A stretch of DNA of 64,000 nucleotides from Parcubacteria group bacterium (GTDB taxonomy: Bacteria > Patescibacteriota > Minisyncoccia > Phycocordibacterales > Phycocordibacteraceae). This document shows, in pieces, positions 39-25,010 of this stretch (its first letter is position 1; every line of letters begins with the position of its first letter). A program made the translations under genes and the position numbers. The stretch spans positions 13,125 through 77,124 of the forward strand of contig JAQBRG010000003.1 in the NCBI GenBank assembly GCA_028286615.1. Reading direction: 5' to 3'. The notes under the pieces were generated by a model. That model ran no database searches. It was not told the DNA's origin and saw only the letters and a program-made list of their open reading frames with translations.

Positions 39-122
39 GGTGCGCCGGGGAGGATTCGAACCTCCGAAGCCAGAGGCGGCACGTTTACAGCGTGCTTGTT
101 TTGACCACTTACCTACCGACGC
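39..122 (-). tRNA. tRNA-Tyr (anticodon GTA), class II with a long variable arm. The 3' end encodes discriminator A plus CC but not a full CCA.
   Basis: Read on the minus strand the sequence is GCGTCGG..GCACG-CTGTAAA-CGTGC..GGAGG-TTCGAAT-CCTCC-CCGGCGC-A-CC. The acceptor stem is 7 bp with one G-U pair. The anticodon stem is 5 bp with a 7-nt loop, U33, anticodon GTA and A37. The T-arm carries the canonical GGTTCGAATCC. A 13-nt variable arm with a small stem resembles bacterial tRNA-Tyr. The D-stem pairing is weak by my folding. Confidence 0.7.
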
Positions 123-5205: not shown

Positions 5206-5700
5206 TTAAGCTTGAACCAAGTCAGTACCCTGCTGATGCTTTAAGTATAGCTTTTTGAAATAGGTAGGCACATACGGTAAGTATTTCTTGAACTGCTCAT
5301 TGGGAATATATCGTATTGAGCGGATCACTTTGCGACAATTGGCTTCCCCACACGAACAAGGCATTTCCCAAAGATCATCTCCTTCGATAATTGAGTAGTC
5401 AACCGTGATCTCCTCGCCCTCTCTAATATCTTTGAGAGCAACCATGGTAACTGTGCCCTTTATTCCAGAATTTGGGTTACAAGAGTGGTTTAGATACTGG
5501 TTAGGTGCATTCGGGTCTATCCATTTGTTTTTTCCAATGCCAATCCAGTTAGGGTACGAAAGAGACTCCTCTTTAGAGGTAATGGCAAGGAATTTAGCCT
5601 CACCCTTTATGTGCTGTATAGTTTCTCCTTTCTTGATATCCTCTCCAGCCGTAACCCCCTGGCCATCAATCTTGCTAGTGCAAATATATATATGCTTCAT
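5206..5700 (-). CDS. SET-domain protein, paralog 2, with a post-SET Cys cluster
   Basis: NHSCNPN and ITVDYS are present, plus CSCGEANC (post-SET zinc cluster). It is collinear with and similar to the adjacent 4702..5199 protein. Confidence 0.8.
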   Translation of the reverse strand: MKHIYICTSKIDGQGVTAGEDIKKGETIQHIKGEAKFLAITSKEESLSYPNWIGIGKNKWIDPNAPNQYLNHSCNPNSGIKGTVTMVALKDIREGEEITVDYSIIEGDDLWEMPCSCGEANCRKVIRSIRYIPNEQFKKYLPYVPTYFKKLYLKHQQGTDLVQA

Positions 5701-5798
5701 AAGCCTTTGCTTTGATTATACTAGACTAATAATGGTAAAAAATGCAATCTTTGGTAATAAGTGTAAAAAGAGGTCTGCATCGCTGGAGCGAGCAGACC

Positions 5799-6380
5799 TC
5801 AAGTTTTTTGGAACTTTTTGTAGAGAACCAACACCAGGATGAGGCTGTGAGTTCCGAGATGCACTACAGGAAAGGCTAGCTCCCCTAAGTGGTTCAGACG
5901 CATCAGCACAACAACGAGGTGCAGAGCGTATGCGACGGACCAAACAGCCCATGGCAGCCAGTGTTCTTTATGCTTGTCTGCCAAGATGTCTCTGGCCATA
6001 GGCCTGAAAGACAGGACGGTGCTTGCTTGGTAGAGCAGGTTTGCAACAAGTGCGGTGGTGAAGAGCCAGAGGAAGGTGATGAAGGTATCCAATCCGAAGA
6101 TCAGCCAATCTTCTTTCTCTGGCTTATCGAGCCGCCCTTTTGCAAACAAGTACCCAACCATAATCATGCAGGCCATGGAACAGGTGAAAGGAAGAACTTC
6201 CTTAACCCAGTCCTCGGCAACGAACGCGTACGACAAGGCGTCCACGAACGCACCGAAAGCCCACATGACCCAAGAGCCGGCGCCTGCTTGTTTGGTTAGT
6301 TTGACGTAGAGGTAATACCCCAGTAATTGCGTCGCCCCGGCCAACAAGCCCAGGGCAACCGAAAAATGTTCGGTACCCAT
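5799..6380 (-). CDS. polytopic membrane protein of unknown function (locally GC-rich)
   Basis: There are 5-6 hydrophobic helices. GC is by eye higher than the flanks. No motif recognised. Confidence 0.5.
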   Translation of the reverse strand: MGTEHFSVALGLLAGATQLLGYYLYVKLTKQAGAGSWVMWAFGAFVDALSYAFVAEDWVKEVLPFTCSMACMIMVGYLFAKGRLDKPEKEDWLIFGLDTFITFLWLFTTALVANLLYQASTVLSFRPMARDILADKHKEHWLPWAVWSVAYALHLVVVLMRLNHLGELAFPVVHLGTHSLILVLVLYKKFQKT

Positions 6381-17209: not shown

Positions 17210-18292
17210 TTAGAGACCCTCAGCCTTCAATTCCTCGATAACTTTCTTCGCCTTTCCGGATAACTTCTTAGGGAGTGCAATAGTAAGGCGAATAAGAAGA
17301 TCTCCCTGTACGTTATCTACAGAGACGCCTCTGTTGCGCAGACGGAGTGTTTCTTCGGTTGTGGTCATGGCAGGAATCTTAACCTCGAGCTTCTTGCCTT
17401 CAACGGTCTCAATAGTTGTCGTAGTGCCAGTAAGTGCATCGGTAAGCTTCAGCGGCATGTGCATGATGAGATTCATACCCTCCTTACGGAATACCGGATG
17501 CGGCTTTACGTGTACTTTGATGTAGAGATCTCCTGAAGTGCCTCCCTTAACCGCTTCACCCATTCCTGGCATACGCATCATTTCTCCCCCATCAATACCT
17601 GCAGGGACATCGATGTTGATTTCTTCTTCCTTCTTAAGGATTCCATGTCCAGCACACGTTACGCATCGCTCCTTTGGAATCTTGCCTGTACCCTCACATG
17701 TCGGGCAAGCTCGAACGCTTGTGAATGCGCCAAGTGGAGAGTTGCGTGTCTCGCGAACCTTTCCGTTTCCGTTACAGGTCTTGCACGTATCCATCTCAGT
17801 ACCAGGCTTTGCCCCGCTTCCATTACAGGTGTCACATTTCCCTACCTTGGTTATAAGCACTTGGCGCTTGGTGCCGAGTATCGATTCTTTGAACGAAATC
17901 TCAATATCTATAGAAATATCTCGTCCGCGCTTTACTCGTCCTCGGCCCGAGCCTCCGAAGATATCTCCAAAGCCTTGGAAGAGATCGTTGATATCAAACT
18001 CCATGTTTCCGTTCTGGAAGCCGTTGAAGTCAAAACCTCCGAAGCCAGCAGCTCCGGCTCCTTGTCCCGCATTTCCCCCAAAGCTCTGTCCATACGAGTC
18101 ATACTCACGACGACGCTTGTCGTCATTCAAAATAGAATAGGCTTCAGTTATCTCCTTGAACTTAGCCTCATCCCCGCCTTTGTCGGGATGGTGCTTCTGA
18201 GCAAGCTTCCTGAAAGCTTTCTTTATATCGTCCTGAGTGGCTTTCTTGTCCACGCCGAGGATGTCGTAGTAGTTTTTAGCCATATCAATCAA
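17210..18292 (-). CDS. dnaJ: molecular chaperone DnaJ
   Basis: J-domain with HPD (YYDILGV..HHPDKGG), a Gly-rich linker, and four CxxCxGxG zinc-finger repeats. Confidence 0.95.
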   Translation of the reverse strand: MIDMAKNYYDILGVDKKATQDDIKKAFRKLAQKHHPDKGGDEAKFKEITEAYSILNDDKRRREYDSYGQSFGGNAGQGAGAAGFGGFDFNGFQNGNMEFDINDLFQGFGDIFGGSGRGRVKRGRDISIDIEISFKESILGTKRQVLITKVGKCDTCNGSGAKPGTEMDTCKTCNGNGKVRETRNSPLGAFTSVRACPTCEGTGKIPKERCVTCAGHGILKKEEEINIDVPAGIDGGEMMRMPGMGEAVKGGTSGDLYIKVHVKPHPVFRKEGMNLIMHMPLKLTDALTGTTTTIETVEGKKLEVKIPAMTTTEETLRLRNRGVSVDNVQGDLLIRLTIALPKKLSGKAKKVIEELKAEGL

Positions 18293-18349
18293 CTATACAC
18301 CTCAATATTTTATGCAGCAAAAGTATAGAAAGTGTGAAGAAAAAAGAGA

Positions 18350-18392
18350 AGAGCGATGTTTCATTTCTGAAGCATCGCTCTCTATCTTTTTT
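18350..18392 (-). terminator. bidirectional terminator-like hairpin between the 116-aa ORF and dnaJ
   Basis: agagcgaug ... caucgcucu, a 9-bp stem, with T-runs on both strands. Confidence 0.5.
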
Positions 18393-18406
18393 GAATCTCA
18401 GGGAGA

Positions 18407-18757
18407 CTAAGGCCCTGTTAGAAGTTTCATTGGCGGCGACGCTGGCAGCGACACCATGTCGTTTGCGGGCTGCGTGGATGAGCGAGCTCGAATATGCTTA
18501 CCCTCATCCTGTAGTTCTTTGATAACCCTCCTAATTTCGAAGTGGCTTGGAAACGTATAGAAGTGAGGGTCAGTGGATCCAAGGAAACACTGCAGCCTAA
18601 TCCAGAAGGGATGCCTCCTGTCAGCTCGAAGCTGCAACTCTCTCCGAACCTGCTCTGTAATCTGGCAAGTCCTGATTCTTTCACCGCGCCTTCTTTCTAG
18701 AATGGTGCGGACCAGTTTTTTAGTGCGTTGGTCTCGGTACCATTTGAAAAAGCCCAT
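18407..18757 (-). CDS. Arg-rich 116-aa hypothetical ORF occupying the dnaK-dnaJ spacer. It has terminator-like hairpins on both sides, so coding status is uncertain.
   Basis: The ORF lies between hairpin 18836..18859 (after dnaK) and hairpin 18350..18381 (before dnaJ). No motif recognised. Confidence 0.3.
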   Translation of the reverse strand: MGFFKWYRDQRTKKLVRTILERRRGERIRTCQITEQVRRELQLRADRRHPFWIRLQCFLGSTDPHFYTFPSHFEIRRVIKELQDEGKHIRARSSTQPANDMVSLPASPPMKLLTGP

Positions 18758-18833
18758 TTTTTCCTCCCGGGAACTAGAGCCACTAAAATAGTACTCCTAG
18801 TCTAGATTTTGGCTAGGGTGAATGAGTGTAAAG

Positions 18834-18866
18834 AAAACAGCCTGGGATGCCAGGCTGTTTTTATCG
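18834..18866 (-). terminator. rho-independent terminator directly after dnaK
   Basis: aacagccugg-cauc-ccaggcuguu, a 10-bp stem, followed by a T-rich run; palindromic, so active in both orientations. Confidence 0.7.
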
Positions 18867-20777
18867 CTATGCCTCTGGAGGTTTCTCCGTAAACTCAGCA
18901 TCTGTTGCTCCAGCTTCTGGAGGAGTCTCAGGATTTGGCTGAGCACCTGCTGCGGGCTGGTCTTTCATCATGGCTTCGCCAATCTTTGAGAGCGAAGTCG
19001 AGAGAGCTTCGGACGCAGACTTAATAGCTTCAATGCTATCTCCGTCCTTGGCTGTGCGTAGTGCAGCAATCTTTTCGTTCACCTCAGTTACAACCTCTGC
19101 AGGAGCTTTCTCTCCAGCGTCCTTAATTGCTTTCTCAGCAGTGTAAATCATCTGTTCAGCAATGTTCTTGCTCTCAACAAGCTCCTTTCGCTTGAGGTCT
19201 TCTGAAGCATGCGCTTCTGCGTCTGCTTTCATCTTTTCAATGTCTTCTTTAGAAAGTCCTGTTGAGCCCTCAATACGGATACTCTGCTCTTTGCCCGTTG
19301 TCTTCTCAAGAGCCTTAACGGTTAGGATGCCGTTCGCGTCTACGTCGAATGTAACTTCAACCTGAGGAAGGCCGCGAGGAGCTGGAGGAATGCCCTCAAG
19401 CATGAAGCGTCCAAGAGACTTGTTGTCTGCAGACATGGCGCGTTCTCCTTGAGTAATATGGATTTCTACACCGGTCTGGTTGTCTGCTGCAGTTGAGAAT
19501 GTCTGAGAGCGAGAGGTTGGCACCGCGGTGTTGCGTTCAATGAGCTTAGTTGCAACGCCTCCCATGGTCTCAATGGAAAGTGAAAGGGGGATAACATCAA
19601 CGAGAAGAATATCCTTTACGTCTCCCTGTAGAACTCCCGCCTGAATAGCAGCACCAATAGCCACAACCTCGTCTGGGTTTACATCCATGTGCGGATCCTT
19701 TCCAAAGAGTTTCTTAACCTCTTCCTGAATGCGAGGCATACGTGTCTGGCCACCAACGAGAATAACCTCGCCAATGTCGGCAGCTTTCATGCCTGAAGCT
19801 TCTAGAGCCCGCTTGGTTATGTCTATAGAACGAGTAACAAACTCTTCTGAAAGAGACTCGAGTGTTGCACGCGTGAGCTTAACAAGAAGGTGCTGTGGGT
19901 TGCCGCTTCCGTCTACGGTTATGAACGGAATGTTAACCTCAGTCTCGCTTGCTGTAGAGAGTTCGTGCTTTGCTTTCTCAGCCCCTTCATCAAGGCGCTG
20001 GAGCGCAAGAGGATCCTTGGTTACATCAAGTCCACTCTGCTTCTTAAACTCGTCAGCTATATAGCGAACAATCTTCTGATCTATATCGCGACCTCCCATG
20101 TGTGAGTCTCCATCGGTTGAACGAACTTCAATAGTTAGTTCTCCCGCGTCTCCGATAGCAACTTCAAGTACAGACACGTCGAAGGTTCCTCCTCCGAAGT
20201 CGTACACAACAATCTTCTCGTCTTTCTTTTTATTAAATCCGTATGCAAGAGCAGCGGCAGTTGGTTCGTTGATGATGCGCTTAACATCGAGCCCTGCAAC
20301 CTGCCCTGCGGCCTTAGTTGCTGCACGCTGTGCGTCGTTAAAGTATGCAGGAACGGTAATAACTGCTTCAGTTATTTTTTCTCCAAGCTTTGCCTCGGCA
20401 TCTGCCTTGAGCTTTGAAAGAATCATCGCTGACACTTCCTCAGGACGGTAGTCTTTGTCGCCAAGATGTACCTGTACGCCTCCGTCTGGGCCTGCCTTGA
20501 TCTCATACGGCACAACACCTTTATCGTTCTGAACTGCCTCATCCTTGAAGCTATGTCCCATGAAGCGCTTGATACCGTAGATAGTATTCTTCGGGTTCGT
20601 AACAGCCTGACGCTTTGCGAGCGTTCCAACGAGCCGCTCCCCGTTCTTAGCGATAGCAACAACAGACGGCGTAGTGCGCTGTCCTTCTGCGTTCTCTAGA
20701 ACGCGTGGTTCGCCTCCCTCCATGATTGCCATGGCGGAGTTTGTGGTACCGAGGTCAATGCCAAGAATCTTTGCCAT
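18867..20777 (-). CDS. dnaK: molecular chaperone DnaK (Hsp70)
   Basis: [25 protein letters not shown] and the other Hsp70 signatures are present, with a C-terminal EEVD-like acidic tail. Confidence 0.97.
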
Positions 20778-20868: not shown

Positions 20869-21417
20869 CTAGGCCTCAAAGTGCCCAACACGAACTTTGG
20901 CGGGACGGATAACCATATCCCCAGCCTTCCAGCCTGGTTGAAGGACGAGCGTAACCGCATCGTCCTCATCAGCTTCATGTACCACATCTTGTCCTAAGGC
21001 TTCGTGAAGAACAGGATCGAACTTTTCTCCTTTCTCCCCAAAAGATACAAGACCAAGTTCTTTTGCTGCAGTCTCAAGCTGTCTCGCAATGCCCTGGAAG
21101 CCCTCAGGAAGCTCGGTAGCGAGAGCTAGAGAGTCTAGTGCGGGCAGAATAGCCTTTATGGCTTTCATCTTGCCCAAATCAACTGCGCGTAGCTTGTCTT
21201 CCTCAAAGCGTTTGAGCGCATTTACATAGTCCGCCTTAGCACGCTGCCAACCGTCCATGTATTCCTGTCGCTCTTTCTTAACTTGGTCGAGTTCCTTCTT
21301 GAGCTTGGTTGACTTCGTGTCTGCACGGCTCTCAACAGAATCGAGTTCCTCTTCGCTCATGCCAGCCTCCTCGTGGCCGTCTTGTTCAATTGAAATGTCA
21401 TCCTCATCCATATGCAT
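20869..21417 (-). CDS. grpE: nucleotide exchange factor GrpE
   Basis: A coiled-coil N-terminus is followed by a C-terminal GrpE beta domain. It sits immediately upstream of dnaK. Confidence 0.85.
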   Translation of the reverse strand: MHMDEDDISIEQDGHEEAGMSEEELDSVESRADTKSTKLKKELDQVKKERQEYMDGWQRAKADYVNALKRFEEDKLRAVDLGKMKAIKAILPALDSLALATELPEGFQGIARQLETAAKELGLVSFGEKGEKFDPVLHEALGQDVVHEADEDDAVTLVLQPGWKAGDMVIRPAKVRVGHFEA

Positions 21418-21523
21418 TGAATATGCCTGAAGTGGAGGAGAGAGTCAAAGTCCCATGTAGTAGATCATAGTAAATAGAAAAAGGACGGCCACGCTCTTGC
21501 GTTAAGCCGTCCCTTCATGAGTC

Positions 21524-21817
21524 TTATCCGTTCCGGATCTTGTAGTAGATCCAGTTCCAGTCGGAACGCCGGATCACCTTGCGCACGTTCAGAGCCGGCG
21601 ACGCGTCGATCCAGCTGTCAGAACCGTACGGCTCCACCTGGATCCGGTAGGTGCCCCTAATGTCGATGACGAATGCACCGGCGCACTTCTTCGCGGCCTC
21701 CACGTAGGTGTAGCCGCACGGCCTATAAGGGCCGAGGTATCCGGGCCTGGCTTCTGCCGTGGACGCCGTCATGATGGTGACAGACATGCACAAGGCAAGC
21801 AACGTAAACGCACGCAT
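21524..21817 (-). CDS. small secreted protein (signal peptide), encoded in a distinctly GC-rich stretch
   Basis: The N-terminal signal peptide is MRAFTLLALCMSVTIMTASTAEA. Two Cys are present. Local GC is by eye about 60% against about 47% in the window overall. Confidence 0.45.
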   Translation of the reverse strand: MRAFTLLALCMSVTIMTASTAEARPGYLGPYRPCGYTYVEAAKKCAGAFVIDIRGTYRIQVEPYGSDSWIDASPALNVRKVIRRSDWNWIYYKIRNG

Positions 21818-21895
21818 CTAATCCTCGATTCGAAAGAGTTGAAACTTATATAAGTATACAGTCATTAATAGAAATGTCAAACTACTGCTCTTTTA

Positions 21896-22438
21896 TTAAA
21901 AGAAGCTTAAGATCCAGGAGATAAGAGAATTCCAGATCTGGATGATGCGCGAAGGTGTGTGCTCAGCCGTTGTGGTGGCTTCTGTGCTGGTAGCTGTAGT
22001 GGTGGCAGCAACCTCAACAGGGGCAACTACAGGCGCTGGTTTTTCGTATGCAGTGCAGTATCCAGGAGTTGGCTCGTTCATACAGGCACGCATCGTACAG
22101 ATGCTCTGGCCGTTAGGCCGTTTGCTGCAAGAGTTACAGCCATCGAACCACGCAATACAGCTTGCGGGCGGCTTGTACGGCTCAGTTGGTTTTATGGGGC
22201 CAGATTCTTTCTCGGTACACTCTCCATCATGAATATAGGTTCCCTTTTCAGCTCCAAGGGTGCAGCTGTTGCCGTACGTGTGATACATAGGGTAGCAAGG
22301 CGCGGCAAAGCACTGTACCTGCTGTGCTCCACAGACTGGTTGATACTGTTGAGTACACATTGTTTGTTCTTCAGCACGAACTAGCTGAGGGGCTACTATC
22401 GCCACCAGGAATGCGAGGGGAATAAGAATAGATTTCAT
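21896..22438 (-). CDS. secreted Cys-rich protein with a Kazal-like motif, a Thr/Ala-rich linker and a C-terminal hydrophobic anchor
   Basis: A signal peptide is present. QPVCG...TYGNSC resembles the Kazal PxCG...TYxNxC core. There are 15 Cys. A TTTATSTEATTTAE linker precedes a hydrophobic C-terminus. Confidence 0.55.
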   Translation of the reverse strand: MKSILIPLAFLVAIVAPQLVRAEEQTMCTQQYQPVCGAQQVQCFAAPCYPMYHTYGNSCTLGAEKGTYIHDGECTEKESGPIKPTEPYKPPASCIAWFDGCNSCSKRPNGQSICTMRACMNEPTPGYCTAYEKPAPVVAPVEVAATTTATSTEATTTAEHTPSRIIQIWNSLISWILSFF

Positions 22439-22534
22439 ATGTATAAGTATAGACGGTGTTTATTGCCAACTCTTACTAATACACTGTACTGACAATGTAT
22501 TGACACATGAATTCAGCTTATATAAACTGAGTGT

Positions 22535-22804
22535 ATGACAACCACAATTCAGCTTCGAATTGACGAGAAGATGAAAAAAGCTGCTCAATCAGTATTTGAA
22601 AAAATGGGCTTGGATCTCTCAAGTGGGGTGAAGCTATACCTAGCACAGGTTATACAGGAACAAGGCCTTCCATTTACTCCTCGCACCATAAACAGTCTTA
22701 CTCCTGCGTACGAAGCACGTCTTCTCTCTGAAGCGAAGTCTGCTAAGAAAAAAGGTACTTCTTATCGTTCCGCGAAAGCTGCGCTACAAGATATTTTGCC
22801 TTAG
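22535..22804 (+). CDS. dinJ: type II antitoxin, RelB/DinJ family
   Basis: The N-terminal ribbon-helix-helix sequence IQLRIDEKMKKAAQSVFEKMGLDLSSGVKLYLAQV...LPF closely resembles DinJ. It is followed 3 nt later by a YafQ-like toxin. Confidence 0.8.
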   Translation: MTTTIQLRIDEKMKKAAQSVFEKMGLDLSSGVKLYLAQVIQEQGLPFTPRTINSLTPAYEARLLSEAKSAKKKGTSYRSAKAALQDILP

Positions 22805-22807
22805 TCC

Positions 22808-23083
22808 ATGTATGAGCTTCGCTTCTCTCATCTTGCAAAGAAGTCACTGAAGAAACTTGCTCGAAGCGGTTCATTTGATGCAAAAGGTCTAGAAACAGCT
22901 CTTGACTGCTTTATTGCAGGTACAACTTTGCCGTCTAAATTCAAAGACCATCAACTCAAAGGGGACCTTTCAAGTTTTAGAGAATGCCATCTTGGCTTTG
23001 ATCTGCTTGTGAAGTACGAAAGAGACGAATCACTCAAGATGGTCATCATTGCAGACATAGGAACCCATAACAGTATCTTCTGA
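22808..23083 (+). CDS. yafQ: type II toxin, YafQ/RelE family mRNA interferase
   Basis: The motif DHQLKGDLSSFRECHLGFDLLVKY matches the YafQ DHKLTGxxxxxRDCHIxPDxLLIY pattern. Size is 91 aa. Confidence 0.8.
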   Translation: MYELRFSHLAKKSLKKLARSGSFDAKGLETALDCFIAGTTLPSKFKDHQLKGDLSSFRECHLGFDLLVKYERDESLKMVIIADIGTHNSIF

Positions 23084-23160
23084 TGTTGACAAATATACTT
23101 AAAAGTGTTAGTCTAAATAACACTGATCTTTAGCAACACTCATTCGCCAAAGGGTTTCCA

Positions 23161-23376
23161 ATGAAAATTCTTTACGCTACTCTCGCCTCGGTTCTGCTGC
23201 TCACCGCCTGCGGAGAAACAAACGAGAAGAAATGCTCACGTCTGTACGACCAAGCGGCTAAATACGAAGCATCCTTTCCTACGCCGGCCGGCCGGCACAT
23301 GCGTCGCAGCAGCCACCGTCTAACGAAGGAAGAGAGTGTGCAGTTCTGTCTCGCCGACCTGCAAGACAAGAACTGA
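23161..23376 (+). CDS. small lipoprotein
   Basis: A lipobox LLTAC follows the signal peptide. The 3' end is GC-rich. A terminator hairpin follows. Confidence 0.45.
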   Translation: MKILYATLASVLLLTACGETNEKKCSRLYDQAAKYEASFPTPAGRHMRRSSHRLTKEESVQFCLADLQDKN

Positions 23377-23381
23377 ATTCC

Positions 23382-23414
23382 GGGAGCATCTTAGCCAGAT
23401 GCTCCCTTGTTTTA
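23382..23414 (+). terminator. rho-independent terminator after the lipoprotein gene
   Basis: Stem gggagcat/atgctccc of 8 bp followed by ttgtttt. Confidence 0.6.
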
Positions 23415-23525
23415 TATAACTGAGTAAAAAGAATCCCAGACATAAACCTGGGGGGTTTCTTACAAGACTAATGCTTACGAAAGACTTACCATCCAAATTT
23501 TCTAACAGTAAGGTTTTATTGCTCA

Positions 23526-23560
23526 GTGTAAAACAAAAAGCAACAGTTTTAGCTGTTGCT
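23526..23560 (-). terminator. rho-independent terminator downstream of the HNH-AP2 gene
   Basis: On the minus strand: agcaacag-cuaaaa-cuguugcu followed by ttttgtttt. Confidence 0.6.
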
Positions 23561-23588
23561 TAGTTTGTGGCCACGTTGTCCCATTGCC

Positions 23589-24203
23589 TTAGAATACAGG
23601 TTCCACATCATTGTATGGCATGGCTTGAATGGCAGAGTCCTCAGGGAAATCTGCTTTGAGGTTTCGCAGATACCGATTGTACATTCGATACCCTTCCTCT
23701 TGATTCGGAGCAATTCCAACGTAGCGATTCTTGCCCTGCAGAACTATCCGAACTTCCCAGCGACTGCTAGTACGTACCCAGAGCACCCCTCTACGTGATG
23801 AGTATGTTATAAACGCTAGGTTTGATCGCCTGAAATCAAGCAAATGGTCGACTCTACAGACAGGGCCATCAAGCGACCTTCCCATGCGTTCCCATATTAT
23901 ATGGTTTAGAGTCATGCAGGACACTTCCCCAGCAACAGACCGTCGCCTTCGGATTTGAATACTTTGTTGTCTACTCTTGCCGCAGATATTTCCGCACCAA
24001 ATGTATTCTTTCATCACCTCCAGATCTTCAGGAGAGACGAGTACATACCACCCATACAGAGCGGACGGGTTTCGGTTTCTAAGACGACACGCAACAAAGG
24101 GACCTTTCTCGTCACTGCCTTTCACAAAATCACGCCCGATTGCTTGAGCATGAGTGAAGAGAGGCGTGAGCGGCTTCCCGTTAAGCATGACTGGTTTGGC
24201 CAT
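23589..24203 (-). CDS. HNH endonuclease with a C-terminal AP2 DNA-binding domain (phage/intron-type homing-endonuclease architecture)
   Basis: The HNH_3-type motif VDHLLDFRRSNL matches DHxxxxxxNRxxNL. A Cys pair is upstream (CGNICG). The AP2-like segment is WEVRIVLQGKNRYVGIAPNQEEGYRMYNRY. Confidence 0.7.
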   Translation of the reverse strand: MAKPVMLNGKPLTPLFTHAQAIGRDFVKGSDEKGPFVACRLRNRNPSALYGWYVLVSPEDLEVMKEYIWCGNICGKSRQQSIQIRRRRSVAGEVSCMTLNHIIWERMGRSLDGPVCRVDHLLDFRRSNLAFITYSSRRGVLWVRTSSRWEVRIVLQGKNRYVGIAPNQEEGYRMYNRYLRNLKADFPEDSAIQAMPYNDVEPVF

Positions 24204-24562
24204 CTGTCTCTCCCAAATAACAAATACAGCTGCGTGGAGTCTACAAGAAGGGTTGGGTAAGTCAATTTATGCGCCATTACTAATATCTATCTCCTAATTA
24301 CAAAAAGGACCGCATCCAAACCAAGGCTTGGATGCGGTGAGGAATTTGTGCATTCGATCATTCTAACGTCTTATTCATTAGACGCATGACGATTTCGGTC
24401 AAGTTTTGAAAAACTCGGCACAACACCGGTCGGCAGAAAGATGGGGGTAGACAGGAGGCGCACAAACCATCTCTCCTTGATGTTGCATGTAGGACAATCC
24501 GACGTATCTCTTCCTTGCGTCTTGCGCGCCTAGACTAATACTGTAACAAATAAATACTCTTT

Positions 24563-24602
24563 GTCAAAGAGAAACCCCGTCTTGAAACGGGGTCTTTCTC
24601 TT
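24563..24602 (-). terminator. terminator after rpsI (end of the ribosomal/rpoA operon)
   Basis: Stem ccccgt/acgggg with T-rich tracts on both sides, immediately after the rpsI stop. Confidence 0.6.
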
Positions 24603-24608
24603 ATAAAA

Positions 24609-25010
24609 CTAACGCTTGCTCCACTGAGGACGCTTGCGGGCCTTGAGAAGACCTGGCTTCTTTCGTTCCTTAGCACGAGGATCACGAGTGAGAAGTCCTG
24701 CAGCCTTGAGAGTCTTGCGGCTTCCCTCTTCTGCCTTCTCAACTGCGCGAGCAATAGCATGACGAACTGCCTGAGCCTGAGCTGAGATGCCACCACCCTG
24801 TACCTTTGCTTCTACAGCATAAGTATCTTTCCACTCTCCTGCGCGGAATACGTCGGTGGTAACTGACTCGCGCTCTGCGGTCTTGAAGTAGTCCTTAGCA
24901 GACACACCGTTAACCATAACGGAGGTCTTAGCTGCAGGAGTAAGCTTCACGCGAGCGCTCGCAGTCTTGCGGCGTCCGACAGCGACAGTGTAGTTGGTTG
25001 ATTCGGGCAT
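24609..25010 (-). CDS. rpsI: 30S ribosomal protein S9
   Basis: The C-terminus is ...ARKRPQWSKR and length is typical. Confidence 0.95.
   Translation of the reverse strand: MPESTNYTVAVGRRKTASARVKLTPAAKTSVMVNGVSAKDYFKTAERESVTTDVFRAGEWKDTYAVEAKVQGGGISAQAQAVRHAIARAVEKAEEGSRKTLKAAGLLTRDPRAKERKKPGLLKARKRPQWSKR

Follow-up and report, generated by a model that had tools for sequence, protein, structure and literature searches.

A variable rpsI-grpE junction hosting small accessory genes, among them a divergent HNH-AP2 derivative, in a Parcubacteria group bacterium

Introduction

A homing-endonuclease origin has been proposed for the AP2/ERF factors of plants. Bacterial pan-genomes have 'hotspots', i.e. 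chromosomal integration sites located between conserved core genes, and phages carry 'morons', which are self-contained insertions made of a promoter, a gene and a terminator. Free-standing genes for homing endonucleases of the HNH-AP2 or HNH_3 type are found in phages, giant viruses and bacteria (PMC2993671, Table 5; I-HmuI, PDB 1u3e).

Here, we analysed the genes between rpsI and grpE in a 64,000-nt stretch of DNA from a Parcubacteria group bacterium with a Kaiserbacteria-like genome (the window). The rpsI|grpE junction resembles pan-genome hotspots in that conserved core operons flank a variable, mostly lineage-specific cargo with recurrent toxin-antitoxin modules. In contrast with these hotspots, it has no integrase, tRNA or repeat signature, and its cargo, hosted by a reduced Parcubacteria genome, is very small, being made up of single genes with 70-200 codons. 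As in phage morons, most units of the patch have a predicted promoter, a predicted terminator or both, and the cassette of the gene that we called hnh204 is bounded likewise in the loci L090, L093 and L096. However, the patch is chromosomal and not part of a prophage, and its units are known here from predicted signals.

Results

Synteny was examined in 80 related Parcubacteria loci, and 67 related genomes retain the gene order rpoA-rplQ-rplM-rpsI, gap, grpE-dnaK-dnaJ. In these 67 loci, the gap between rpsI and grpE ranges from 64 to 6372 bp, with several relatives at just 64-98 bp; it is 3.2 kb long in the window. Junctions inside the ribosomal operon measure 3-12 bp, versus a median of 850 bp for rpsI|grpE, and rpoA|rplQ, rplQ|rplM and rplM|rpsI do not exceed 125 bp in any locus. 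Small accessory cassettes also come and go at a secondary junction, dnaK|dnaJ.

Most ORFs of the gaps (130 out of 189) have no relative in any other gap, which indicates that rpsI|grpE is a real insertion hotspot. The only gap content common to the window and its relatives is the gene coding for a protein called sp180. Other lineages harbour different cargo at the same junction, including pairs of DUF4258 and DUF2283 proteins (5 and 6 members across the gaps; for instance at 9284-9752 in L016). The synteny comparison thus yielded conserved flanking operons around a variable junction, and the same gene order and composition were not seen in the relatives. Small, self-contained accessory genes repeatedly land at the rpsI|grpE junction, which amounts to ordinary genome variability.

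All the elements listed in the original prediction were found at or near where it had placed them (Table 1). Most patch genes come with a promoter-like site of their own, with a terminator-like hairpin of their own, or with both.

Table 1. Features of the rpsI-grpE region (window positions). Promoters and terminators throughout the patch are consensus matches only.
Feature	Position	Strand	Evidence
grpE	20869-21417	-	Pfam GrpE 1.4e-28
Promoter-like site ahead of grpE, TTGACT-17-CATATT	21420..21448	-	consensus match only
sp97 candidate terminator, GGACGGC...GCCGTCC hairpin and T-run	21477..21512	-	read from sequence
sp97, 97 aa, secreted-type	21524..21817	-	hydrophobic N-terminal leader read from sequence
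sp97 promoter-like site, TTGACA-16-TATACT, 11/12 matches	21853..21880	-	consensus match only
sp180, 180 aa, Cys-rich secreted-type	21896..22438	-	hydrophobic N-terminal leader read from sequence
relB promoter-like site, TTGACA-17-TAAACT, overlapped by 20-nt palindrome (repeat I2)	22500..22537	+	consensus match
RelB/DinJ-family antitoxin, 89 aa	22535..22804	+	Pfam RelB (PF04221) 4.2e-13, 49.5 bits, cutoff 22.4
YafQ-family toxin, 91 aa	22808..23083	+	Pfam YafQ_toxin (PF15738) 2.5e-19, 69.8 bits, cutoff 30, match 2-91
lipo71, predicted lipoprotein, 71 aa	23161..23376	+	lipobox LTAC, Cys17
Terminator-like hairpin past lipo71	23382..23406	+	terminator scan
Terminator-like hairpin past hnh204	23538..23561	-	terminator scan
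hnh204, 204 aa, divergent HNH_3-AP2 derivative	23589..24203	-	remote homology and structure search
hnh204 promoter-like site, TTGACT-16-TAGACT	24238..24265	-	consensus match only
End of orphan unit, strong terminator-like hairpin, 13-bp stem, 7 GC, T-run (repeat I6)	24309..24338	-	scan
Candidate 35-codon ORF in orphan unit	24358..24465	-	TTG start, AAGGAG 7 nt upstream
Orphan unit promoter-like site, TTGACA-16-TACAGT and upstream TG, 10/12 match	24540..24567	-	consensus match
Candidate rplM-rpsI operon terminator, hairpin right past rpsI stop	24574..24593	-	scan lists + strand
rpsI	24609-25010	-	Pfam Ribosomal_S9 2.8e-37

Two signal-peptide proteins had been announced, and sp180 and sp97 do have hydrophobic N-terminal leaders, as read from their sequences. 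In sp180, a Kazal-like module at the N-terminus is followed by a second, pacifastin-like one. A linker rich in Thr and Ala and a hydrophobic tail at the C-terminus complete the protein; the tail, a predicted feature, probably tethers it to the surface. sp180 shares the Cys spacing of Kazal and pacifastin inhibitor modules, and some members of its family pass the Pfam thresholds. In contrast with these inhibitors, sp180 is bacterial and itself scores below both gathering values, with 22.7 bits (8.1e-05) against 27.9 for Pacifastin_I (PF05375) and 14.2 bits (E 0.044) against 21 for Kazal_1 (PF00050). Many of its 94 homologues have precomputed Kazal and/or Pacifastin matches, and one is labelled Kazal-type inhibitor by NCBI. 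An older resident of the junction and no recent arrival, sp180 is encoded at this same site in five of the closest relatives (L002, L004, L006, L009 and L010); in L006, the layout is simply rpsI-sp180-grpE, with a gap of 726 bp.

The sole clear compositional outlier of the patch is sp97, whose GC content is 0.599 and GC3 0.816, about 3.8 sd above the window mean of 0.46 (sd 0.09; 67 ORFs). The stretch of roughly 60% GC noticed earlier was recovered at positions 21500-21799 (GC 0.600). sp97 is a near-orphan with no Pfam match; its single homologue, 61% identical, is located on a 58% GC contig. The terminator scan omits its candidate terminator, the loop of which is longer than 8 nt. The compositional check thus singles out sp97 but not the toxin-antitoxin pair, whose GC3 of 0.36-0.38 is within the normal range of the window. 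The GC3 values of sp180 and hnh204, 0.47-0.50, are host-like. That the composition of the toxin-antitoxin pair and of hnh204 is host-like or unremarkable counts against acquisition.

The presence of a DinJ/YafQ pair was confirmed by Pfam models above their cutoffs and by matches in the PDB to Helicobacter pylori HP0892 (5e-11) and Escherichia coli YafQ (2.7e-4); a PHROG search also matched the toxin to RelE-like toxins. The antitoxin gene lies directly upstream of the toxin gene, with a 4-nt spacer between the relB stop (22804) and the yafQ start (22808). The toxin motifs KDHQLKG, FRECHLGFD and GTHNSIF line up with their counterparts in HP0892. The conserved catalytic His/Asp/His and C-terminal Phe of E. 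coli YafQ, which we take to be H50, H63, D67, H87 and F91, have their equivalents in the window toxin according to the HP0892 alignment. The pair thus shares with DinJ-YafQ of E. coli and HP0892 of H. pylori the antitoxin-then-toxin order, the spacer and the KDH, RECH..D and G(T/S)H...F motifs, but it is divergent in sequence from the E. coli system and belongs to a Parcubacteria host. Judging from sequence, relB-yafQ is a bona fide toxin-antitoxin pair. Its family membership suggests that, most likely, it functions like other classical type II modules, in which a YafQ-type ribosome-dependent mRNA endonuclease would be neutralised by the RelB/DinJ antitoxin. The latter would also repress the palindrome-bearing promoter, the 20-nt palindrome being a candidate operator.

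The expected small lipoprotein, lipo71 (MKILYATLASVLLLTAC), has a predicted lipobox read by eye (L14-T15-A16-C17), which follows a short basic/hydrophobic leader and conforms to the pattern [LVI][ASTVI][GAS]C. Its PHROG matches are at the level of the signal peptide only, and no homologue was found in the other rpsI|grpE gaps.

The original prediction also described an HNH endonuclease fused to an AP2 domain. The HNH_3-AP2 ancestry of hnh204 holds by remote homology and fold, but a Pfam match and the catalytic motif are lacking. Thus, no Pfam family was matched at E<=0.1, including HNH_3 (PF13392) and AP2 (PF00847), and the PHROG match to HNH is weak (7.6e-4). The 19 full-length homologues of hnh204 show 40-50% identity, and precomputed Pfam domains are absent from all of them. 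The family profile nevertheless reaches canonical proteins, 30 of 34 of which have both HNH_3 and AP2 domains. Like these proteins, with which it aligns lengthwise, hnh204 has an N-terminal beta-rich region, an HNH-like region and an AP2 region, in this order, the latter with a three-stranded sheet on a helix and homology to AP2-bearing proteins. In structure searches, it comes closest to viral HNH homing endonucleases, and its gene, like theirs, is intergenic beside conserved genes. It differs from them by some 50 additional conserved residues at the N-terminus and by scores below all Pfam thresholds. With the AP2/ERF domains of Arabidopsis TEM1 (7et4), AtERF1 (2gcc) and WRI1 (7wq5), identity is just 19-21%, and DNA binding is predicted.

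In the joint alignment, the canonical Asp (28/34) is replaced by Val in the hnh204 family (V115 in the window), the canonical His (32/34) by Tyr or Cys (C116) and the structural Asn of the LDN motif (27/34) by Phe or Tyr. The columns of the QN..N metal-binding helix are gaps in the family, and residues 131-139 of hnh204 form no helix in the model. While its AP2 fold remains intact, its HNH motif is degenerate and has lost the catalytic Asp-His and the structural Asn along with the metal-binding helix. As the catalytic residues are missing, labelling hnh204 an active homing endonuclease is unjustified. The gene is under purifying selection, with dN/dS values of 0.18-0.25 among three copies. The family is small, a search of 1.84 billion representatives giving about 13 clusters at E<1e-30, and it appears to be restricted to Parcubacteria.

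The promoter-gene-terminator cassette of hnh204, about 740 bp long, has a sporadic intergenic distribution, in five different neighbourhoods. Homologues are found ahead of infA in L082, which retains rpsI-grpE synteny, between rpoD and dnaG in L084 and L085, after greA in L086 and beside tRNA-Gln in L096. Nucleotide similarity to the cassette begins at the promoter and stops at the terminator in L090, L093 and L096, and the gene would travel as such a unit. None of the 67 relatives has an hnh204 homologue in its rpsI|grpE gap, and no pair of filled and empty sites from close strains was found. L090 and L093 are closely related, their neighbouring gene being 87% identical at the DNA level; therefore, the shifted position of the cassette could reflect local rearrangement rather than autonomous movement.

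The non-coding stretch upstream of hnh204, which had been put at about 370 nt with strong hairpins, is 405 nt long (24204-24608), and its hairpins are indeed present as terminator-like sites (8, versus 2.6 +/- 1.5 in shuffles). It includes an orphan unit of about 230 nt from promoter to terminator, with a candidate ORF that has no Pfam match. A search of the spacer against Rfam gave no family at the gathering threshold and otherwise nothing better than E=0.22; the best match, BSnc120 (21 bits against 114), covers the rpsI terminator hairpin.

Discussion

We consider it rather likely that rpsI|grpE is a lineage-wide permissive site where small, individually transcribed cassettes accumulate and turn over, and that the patch arose along the following lines, with the roles proposed here for relB-yafQ and hnh204. 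The simplest start would be the rpsI-sp180-grpE layout of L006, followed by two additions: a block between rpsI and sp180 (24608..22439), with the orphan unit, the hnh204 cassette, the lipoprotein gene and the relB-yafQ operon, and the GC-rich sp97 cassette between sp180 and grpE. As most genes are bracketed by their own predicted signals, insertions past the rpsI terminator and before the grpE promoter spare both core operons; neither operon being disturbed, such insertions would be tolerated. Successive horizontal insertions at a permissive site, as first proposed, are thus supported by the variable junction and its singleton cargo, with the exception of sp180. 'Successive' means here at least two events, since the ancestral sp180 gene separates the rpsI-side block, which is heterogeneous in composition, from the sp97 cassette.

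Gain is not formally separable from differential loss because the nearest relatives compared are distant, with GrpE identities of at most 66%. Genome reduction is typical of the Parcubacteria group, and a larger ancestral gene set between rpsI and grpE might have been differentially lost in streamlined relatives. The conservation of sp180 at the same site in five relatives and the host-like GC3 of hnh204 and sp180 are in line with such an ancestral patch. We nevertheless find it quite improbable, given the predominance of singletons in the gaps, the different kinds of cargo between lineages, the relatives with gaps of 64-98 bp, the GC3 of sp97 (0.82) and the hnh204 homologues at other loci, including that of L082 in the same synteny. 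The arrival of the entire 3.2-kb patch in one event, as a composite mobile element or a prophage or integrative-element remnant, would account for the contiguity of the genes and for several matches to phage families (the PHROG RelE-like toxin and HNH). It is very improbable: the ancestral sp180 is in the middle, and GC3 across the units spans 0.36 to 0.82. Moreover, the ORF list and Pfam searches revealed no integrase, transposase or recombinase in the patch, the sole tRNA of the window (39-122) does not adjoin it, and a repeat search detected neither flanking repeats nor target duplications, nor any direct or inverted repeats at its ends. The patch thus has none of the hallmarks of classical genomic islands or integrative elements, namely an integrase, an att site and flanking direct repeats.

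As for hnh204, the alignment and the predicted model indicate that it is probably nuclease-dead. It would descend from HNH_3-AP2 homing endonucleases that lost the nuclease motif and kept the AP2 DNA-binding fold, and its most likely role is to bind DNA sequence-specifically, not to act as a nuclease. The contrary proposal seems unlikely to us, namely that hnh204 is still active as a non-canonical homing endonuclease and drives its own spread by cutting intergenic sites devoid of the cassette. This proposal would fit with the occurrence of a discrete cassette in varied intergenic sites beside conserved genes, with the viral HNH homing endonucleases as closest structural relatives, with the low dN/dS and with a nearly invariant H120 and an invariant D123, which could be part of a non-canonical site. 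However, all the canonical elements of the nuclease are missing, no Pfam HNH match was obtained, and the 64-kb window contains one copy only. A more specific and tentative proposal is that hnh204 founds a Parcubacteria-restricted, nuclease-dead HNH-AP2 family of homing-endonuclease genes turned into AP2-type regulators and still mobile as cassettes, the adjacent unit of about 230 nt coding for either a small RNA specific to the lineage or a Cys-rich peptide of 35 aa. If true, the origin proposed for the plant AP2/ERF factors would have a bacterial parallel in this family. The chances that the spacer is instead the decayed remains of a former gene, with no function of its own, are somewhat below even. 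Its lack of Rfam matches and of DNA or translated similarity in 96 related loci and its modest folding z-score (-2.26), mostly due to the terminator hairpin, would agree with decay, but the well-matched promoter with its upstream TG, the 13-bp GC-rich terminator about 230 nt downstream and the ORF with its well-spaced AAGGAG have the layout of a transcription unit.

Altogether, the locus is an accessory hotspot of an ordinary sort; its one mildly novel component is an HNH-AP2 family that is probably nuclease-dead, and current understanding is not overturned. A reduced Parcubacteria genome keeps a defined junction at which small accessory cassettes come and go, with secreted or surface proteins, toxin-antitoxin pairs and endonuclease derivatives as cargo. 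The rpsI|grpE junction thus offers a convenient marker with which to follow strain-level variation and gene flow among these uncultured bacteria, and the degenerate HNH-AP2 family is a candidate case of a selfish nuclease gene converted to a DNA-binding protein.

A hotspot between the ribosomal and heat-shock operons

The ~3.2 kb patch between rpsI and grpE contains six ORFs (see the table). An independent Logan assembly (SRR13312974, locus L081) has an identical 6.1-kb arrangement with the same gene order; an assembly artefact is thus an unlikely source of this layout.

Features of the rpsI-grpE patch and its flanks in the window
Feature	Coordinates	Strand	Evidence or remark
dnaJ	17210-18292	-	flanking gene
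dnaK	18867-20777	-	flanking gene
grpE	20869-21417	-	Pfam GrpE 1.4e-28
sp97	21524-21817	-	ORF call
sp180	21896-22438	-	ORF call
relB/dinJ	22535-22804	+	Pfam RelB 4.2e-13, above gathering score
yafQ	22808-23083	+	Pfam YafQ_toxin 2.5e-19, above gathering score
lipo71	23161-23376	+	ORF call
hnh204	23589-24203	-	ORF call
Spacer without long ORF	24204-24608		405 nt, between hnh204 and rpsI
Orphan-unit terminator-like hairpin	24338-24309	-	13 bp, GC-rich, T-run; ~200 nt past promoter match
35-codon ORF in orphan unit	24465-24358	-	TTG start, AAGGAG 7 nt upstream
Orphan-unit promoter-like site	24567-24540	-	10-of-12 match, upstream TG
Hairpin after rpsI stop	24593-24574	-	sequence
rpsI	24609-25010	-	Ribosomal_S9 2.8e-37; rplM, rplQ and rpoA further along, same strand

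The synteny comparison proposed in the original prediction was performed on 80 loci retrieved by a GrpE search (one genome per species, 48-66% identity), all from metagenome-assembled genomes of the Parcubacteria/Paceibacteria/Kaiserbacteria type, in which the core and accessory proteins of the window were placed by tblastn. The order rpoA-rplQ-rplM-rpsI followed by grpE-dnaK-dnaJ is kept in 67 of them, and the content of the intervening gap is variable. The rpsI-grpE gap measures 64-6372 bp (median 850 bp) and exceeds 1.5 kb in 19 loci, whereas the medians at rpoA-rplQ, rplQ-rplM and rplM-rpsI lie between -46 and 12 bp, with no such junction longer than 125 bp. The majority of the gap ORFs (130/189, the six of the window included) lack relatives in all other gaps, and a Pfam scan of 140 of them yielded mostly scattered one-off families. 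The rpsI-grpE junction is therefore a genuine hotspot, in agreement with the permissive site proposed earlier.

The recurrent families in the same scan are DUF2283 (six ORFs), DUF4258 (five) and the Pacifastin/Kazal domains of the sp180 family. DUF4258 and DUF2283 proteins are encoded by adjacent ORFs of ~75 codons each in the gap, e.g. at L016 9284-9752, with similar pairs in L026, L031, L037, L040, L051, L060, L065, L071 and L076. They resemble toxin-antitoxin modules, and we take them to be a candidate pair of this kind. Since these pairs recur at the junction, small two-gene modules of different kinds have arrived there repeatedly in different lineages.

The dnaK-dnaJ junction represents a second, weaker variable site within the heat-shock operon (median 442 bp, maximum 2145 bp in the relatives). 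In the window, this spacer (18293-18866, 574 nt) carries a 116-aa basic ORF at 18407-18757(-) with no Pfam match. Inspection by eye of the sequence upstream of grpE revealed no CIRCE-type heat-shock operator.

Genes of the patch and their probable origins

Both the predicted DinJ/YafQ toxin-antitoxin pair and the small lipoprotein gene were borne out. The YafQ toxin matches the solved family members HP0892 (5e-11) and Escherichia coli YafQ (2.7e-4), and alignment with solved toxins showed that it retains the KDH, RECH..D and GTH...F motifs. The predicted 71-residue lipoprotein lipo71 has an LTAC lipobox with Cys17.

The 180-residue protein sp180 is the sole patch protein also encoded in the rpsI-grpE gap of other genomes (L002, L004, L006, L009 and L010; 50-68% identity). 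Its family has 94 or more members in Parcubacteria; Pfam Kazal_1 or Pacifastin_I is reached by many of these, and one bears the name Kazal-type inhibitor. The window protein is composed of two Cys-rich modules followed by a linker rich in Thr and Ala and a C-terminal hydrophobic tail (…RIIQIWNSLISWILSFF). This organization suggests a putative cell-surface-tethered, protease-inhibitor-like protein conserved in many Parcubacteria.

The gap of L006 (726 bp) contains sp180 and nothing else. Compared with this arrangement, the window carries two additional segments: one of 2.2 kb on the rpsI side of sp180, encompassing the orphan unit of the spacer, hnh204, lipo71 and yafQ-relB, and one on the grpE side, the cassette of the 97-codon gene sp97. 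The GC-rich stretch of roughly 60% noticed around the first secreted gene was recovered (GC 0.60 at 21500-21799), and sp97 has a GC3 of 0.82, whereas 67 ORFs of the window average 0.46 (sd 0.09). Values for the toxin-antitoxin genes (0.36-0.38) and lipo71 (0.62) fall inside the usual range or close to it, and sp180 and hnh204 are host-like (0.47-0.50). Only one homologue of sp97 was found among 5.8 billion clusters. It is located on a contig with 58% GC and adjoins a YebC-like gene with a GC3 of 0.87, which fits a recent acquisition of sp97 from a GC-richer donor.

The segment 21471-21516, located around the terminator of sp97 and upstream of grpE, has 38-46 nt that are ~87% identical to intergenic sequences of L001 (7954-7998, between dnaK and dnaJ) and L067 (162-199, upstream of grpE). 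It may be a regulatory or terminator motif shared by heat-shock genes.

Hnh204, a degenerate HNH-AP2 protein

Hnh204, the 204-residue protein predicted to be an HNH-AP2 endonuclease, has a 100% identical match among NCBI proteins, from a 'Parcubacteria group bacterium'. The proposed HMM search for HNH_3 and AP2 came back empty, with no Pfam match at E≤0.1; a PHROG search gave a weak HNH match (7.6e-4). None of its 19 full-length homologues (40-50% identity) has a Pfam domain. A family profile retrieved 3282 proteins at E≤1e-3 from 1.84 billion representatives. Approximately 13 are close (E<1e-30), and the others either contain several AP2 domains or are 150-260 residues long and align to profile positions ~51-185; HNH_3 and AP2 are both present in 30 of 34 such proteins. 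The AlphaFold model is confident (pLDDT 89.9), and its top BFVD matches are HNH homing endonucleases of phages and giant viruses, with E-values as low as 4e-9 across ~170-200 columns. Foldseek against the PDB gave weak AP2 matches and no HNH match. As a statement on ancestry, the HNH-AP2 assignment is therefore correct, but the canonical active site has been lost.

In a joint alignment, the catalytic Asp (canonical in 28/34 sequences) and His (32/34) are replaced in the hnh204 family by Val and Tyr/Cys (V115 and C116 in hnh204), the Asn of the LDN motif by Phe/Tyr, and the QN..N helix segment is deleted. In the model, the second strand leads to the AP2 domain with no intervening helix. The gene is not in decay, with a dN/dS of 0.18-0.25 among three hnh204-type copies and an N-terminal extension of ~50 residues that is specific to the family and retained in it. 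We infer that hnh204 is probably a nuclease-dead protein that would bind DNA through its AP2 domain.

Hnh204-type genes are found at other, unrelated loci: in front of infA-rpsM in L082, which keeps the same rpsI-grpE synteny, between rpoD and dnaG in L084 and L085, after greA in L086 and near a MarR-type gene in L083. In L090, L093 and L096, nucleotide similarity of 83-87% extends from a TTGACA promoter ~80 bp upstream of the gene to the terminator hairpin, and the flanks differ. The window copy is built alike, with consensus matches for a promoter (24265-24238) and a terminator (23561-23538). Because L090 and L093 are close relatives, their flank difference may partly reflect local rearrangement.

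As to how the insertions may have arisen, terminal direct or inverted repeats delimiting a mobile element were not found in a repeat search of the patch, and the ORF inventory and tRNA and repeat searches detected no integrase, tRNA or bounding repeats there. Targeting of tRNA 3' ends by the hnh204-type cassettes was considered and rejected: in L096, the 3' end of a tRNA-Gln(CTG) gene (184-255) directly abuts the start of the cassette similarity, but the other loci have no such arrangement. A tRNA-Gln(TTG) gene lies 2-3 kb upstream of the copies in L083 and L094; proximity to tRNA-Gln may be coincidental.

Other neighbours were observed. A Druantia DruA homologue (L090 3917-5167; Pfam 5.4e-56) is encoded ~0.8 kb upstream of the cassette, which suggests a neighbourhood resembling a defence island in this genome. 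In L093, an 80-aa stand-alone GIY-YIG ORF (5652-5894; Pfam 4e-19) lies immediately upstream, so that two small genes of endonuclease origin are adjacent there. A conserved intergenic element of ~145 nt (L090 5758-5903, L093 5167-5311; 78% identical, ending ...GGTTCCAGACTGAGCCAGTCAGCAAA) abuts the cassette in L090, not in L093, and yielded no Rfam match or tRNA call.

A putative transcription unit in the spacer

The non-coding DNA with strong hairpins next to hnh204, first placed at 24204..24570 (~370 nt), does contain hairpins, which are terminator-like, but it is 405 nt long. Eight terminator-like sites are present in the region versus 2.6 ± 1.5 in shuffled sequences, and the folding z-score of the spacer is -2.26. 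On the minus strand, the hnh204 promoter-like site comes after the orphan-unit hairpin, and the layout reads as a separate predicted transcription unit of ~230 nt. Blastn, tblastx and blastx searches with the spacer and the intergenic region between lipo71 and hnh204 as queries covered 96 related loci and every gap ORF, and retrieved the identical L081 copy only. The Rfam search proposed for the spacer found no family at gathering or permissive thresholds, as for the entire patch. The orphan unit may correspond to an RNA, a micro-protein or decayed DNA.

Comparison with known systems

Horizontal transfer and genomic islands have been documented in Patescibacteria (PMC12455944), and T4-like phages are known to carry HNH-AP2 homing-endonuclease genes (PMC2993671). 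There is nothing exceptional about the toxin-antitoxin pair, the lipoprotein or the Kazal-like protein, each of which belongs to a known kind; only the orphan unit and the family of degenerate HNH-AP2 proteins are mildly new. On a small scale, the patch represents the well-known type of integration hotspot between core genes, with moron-like cassettes as its content.
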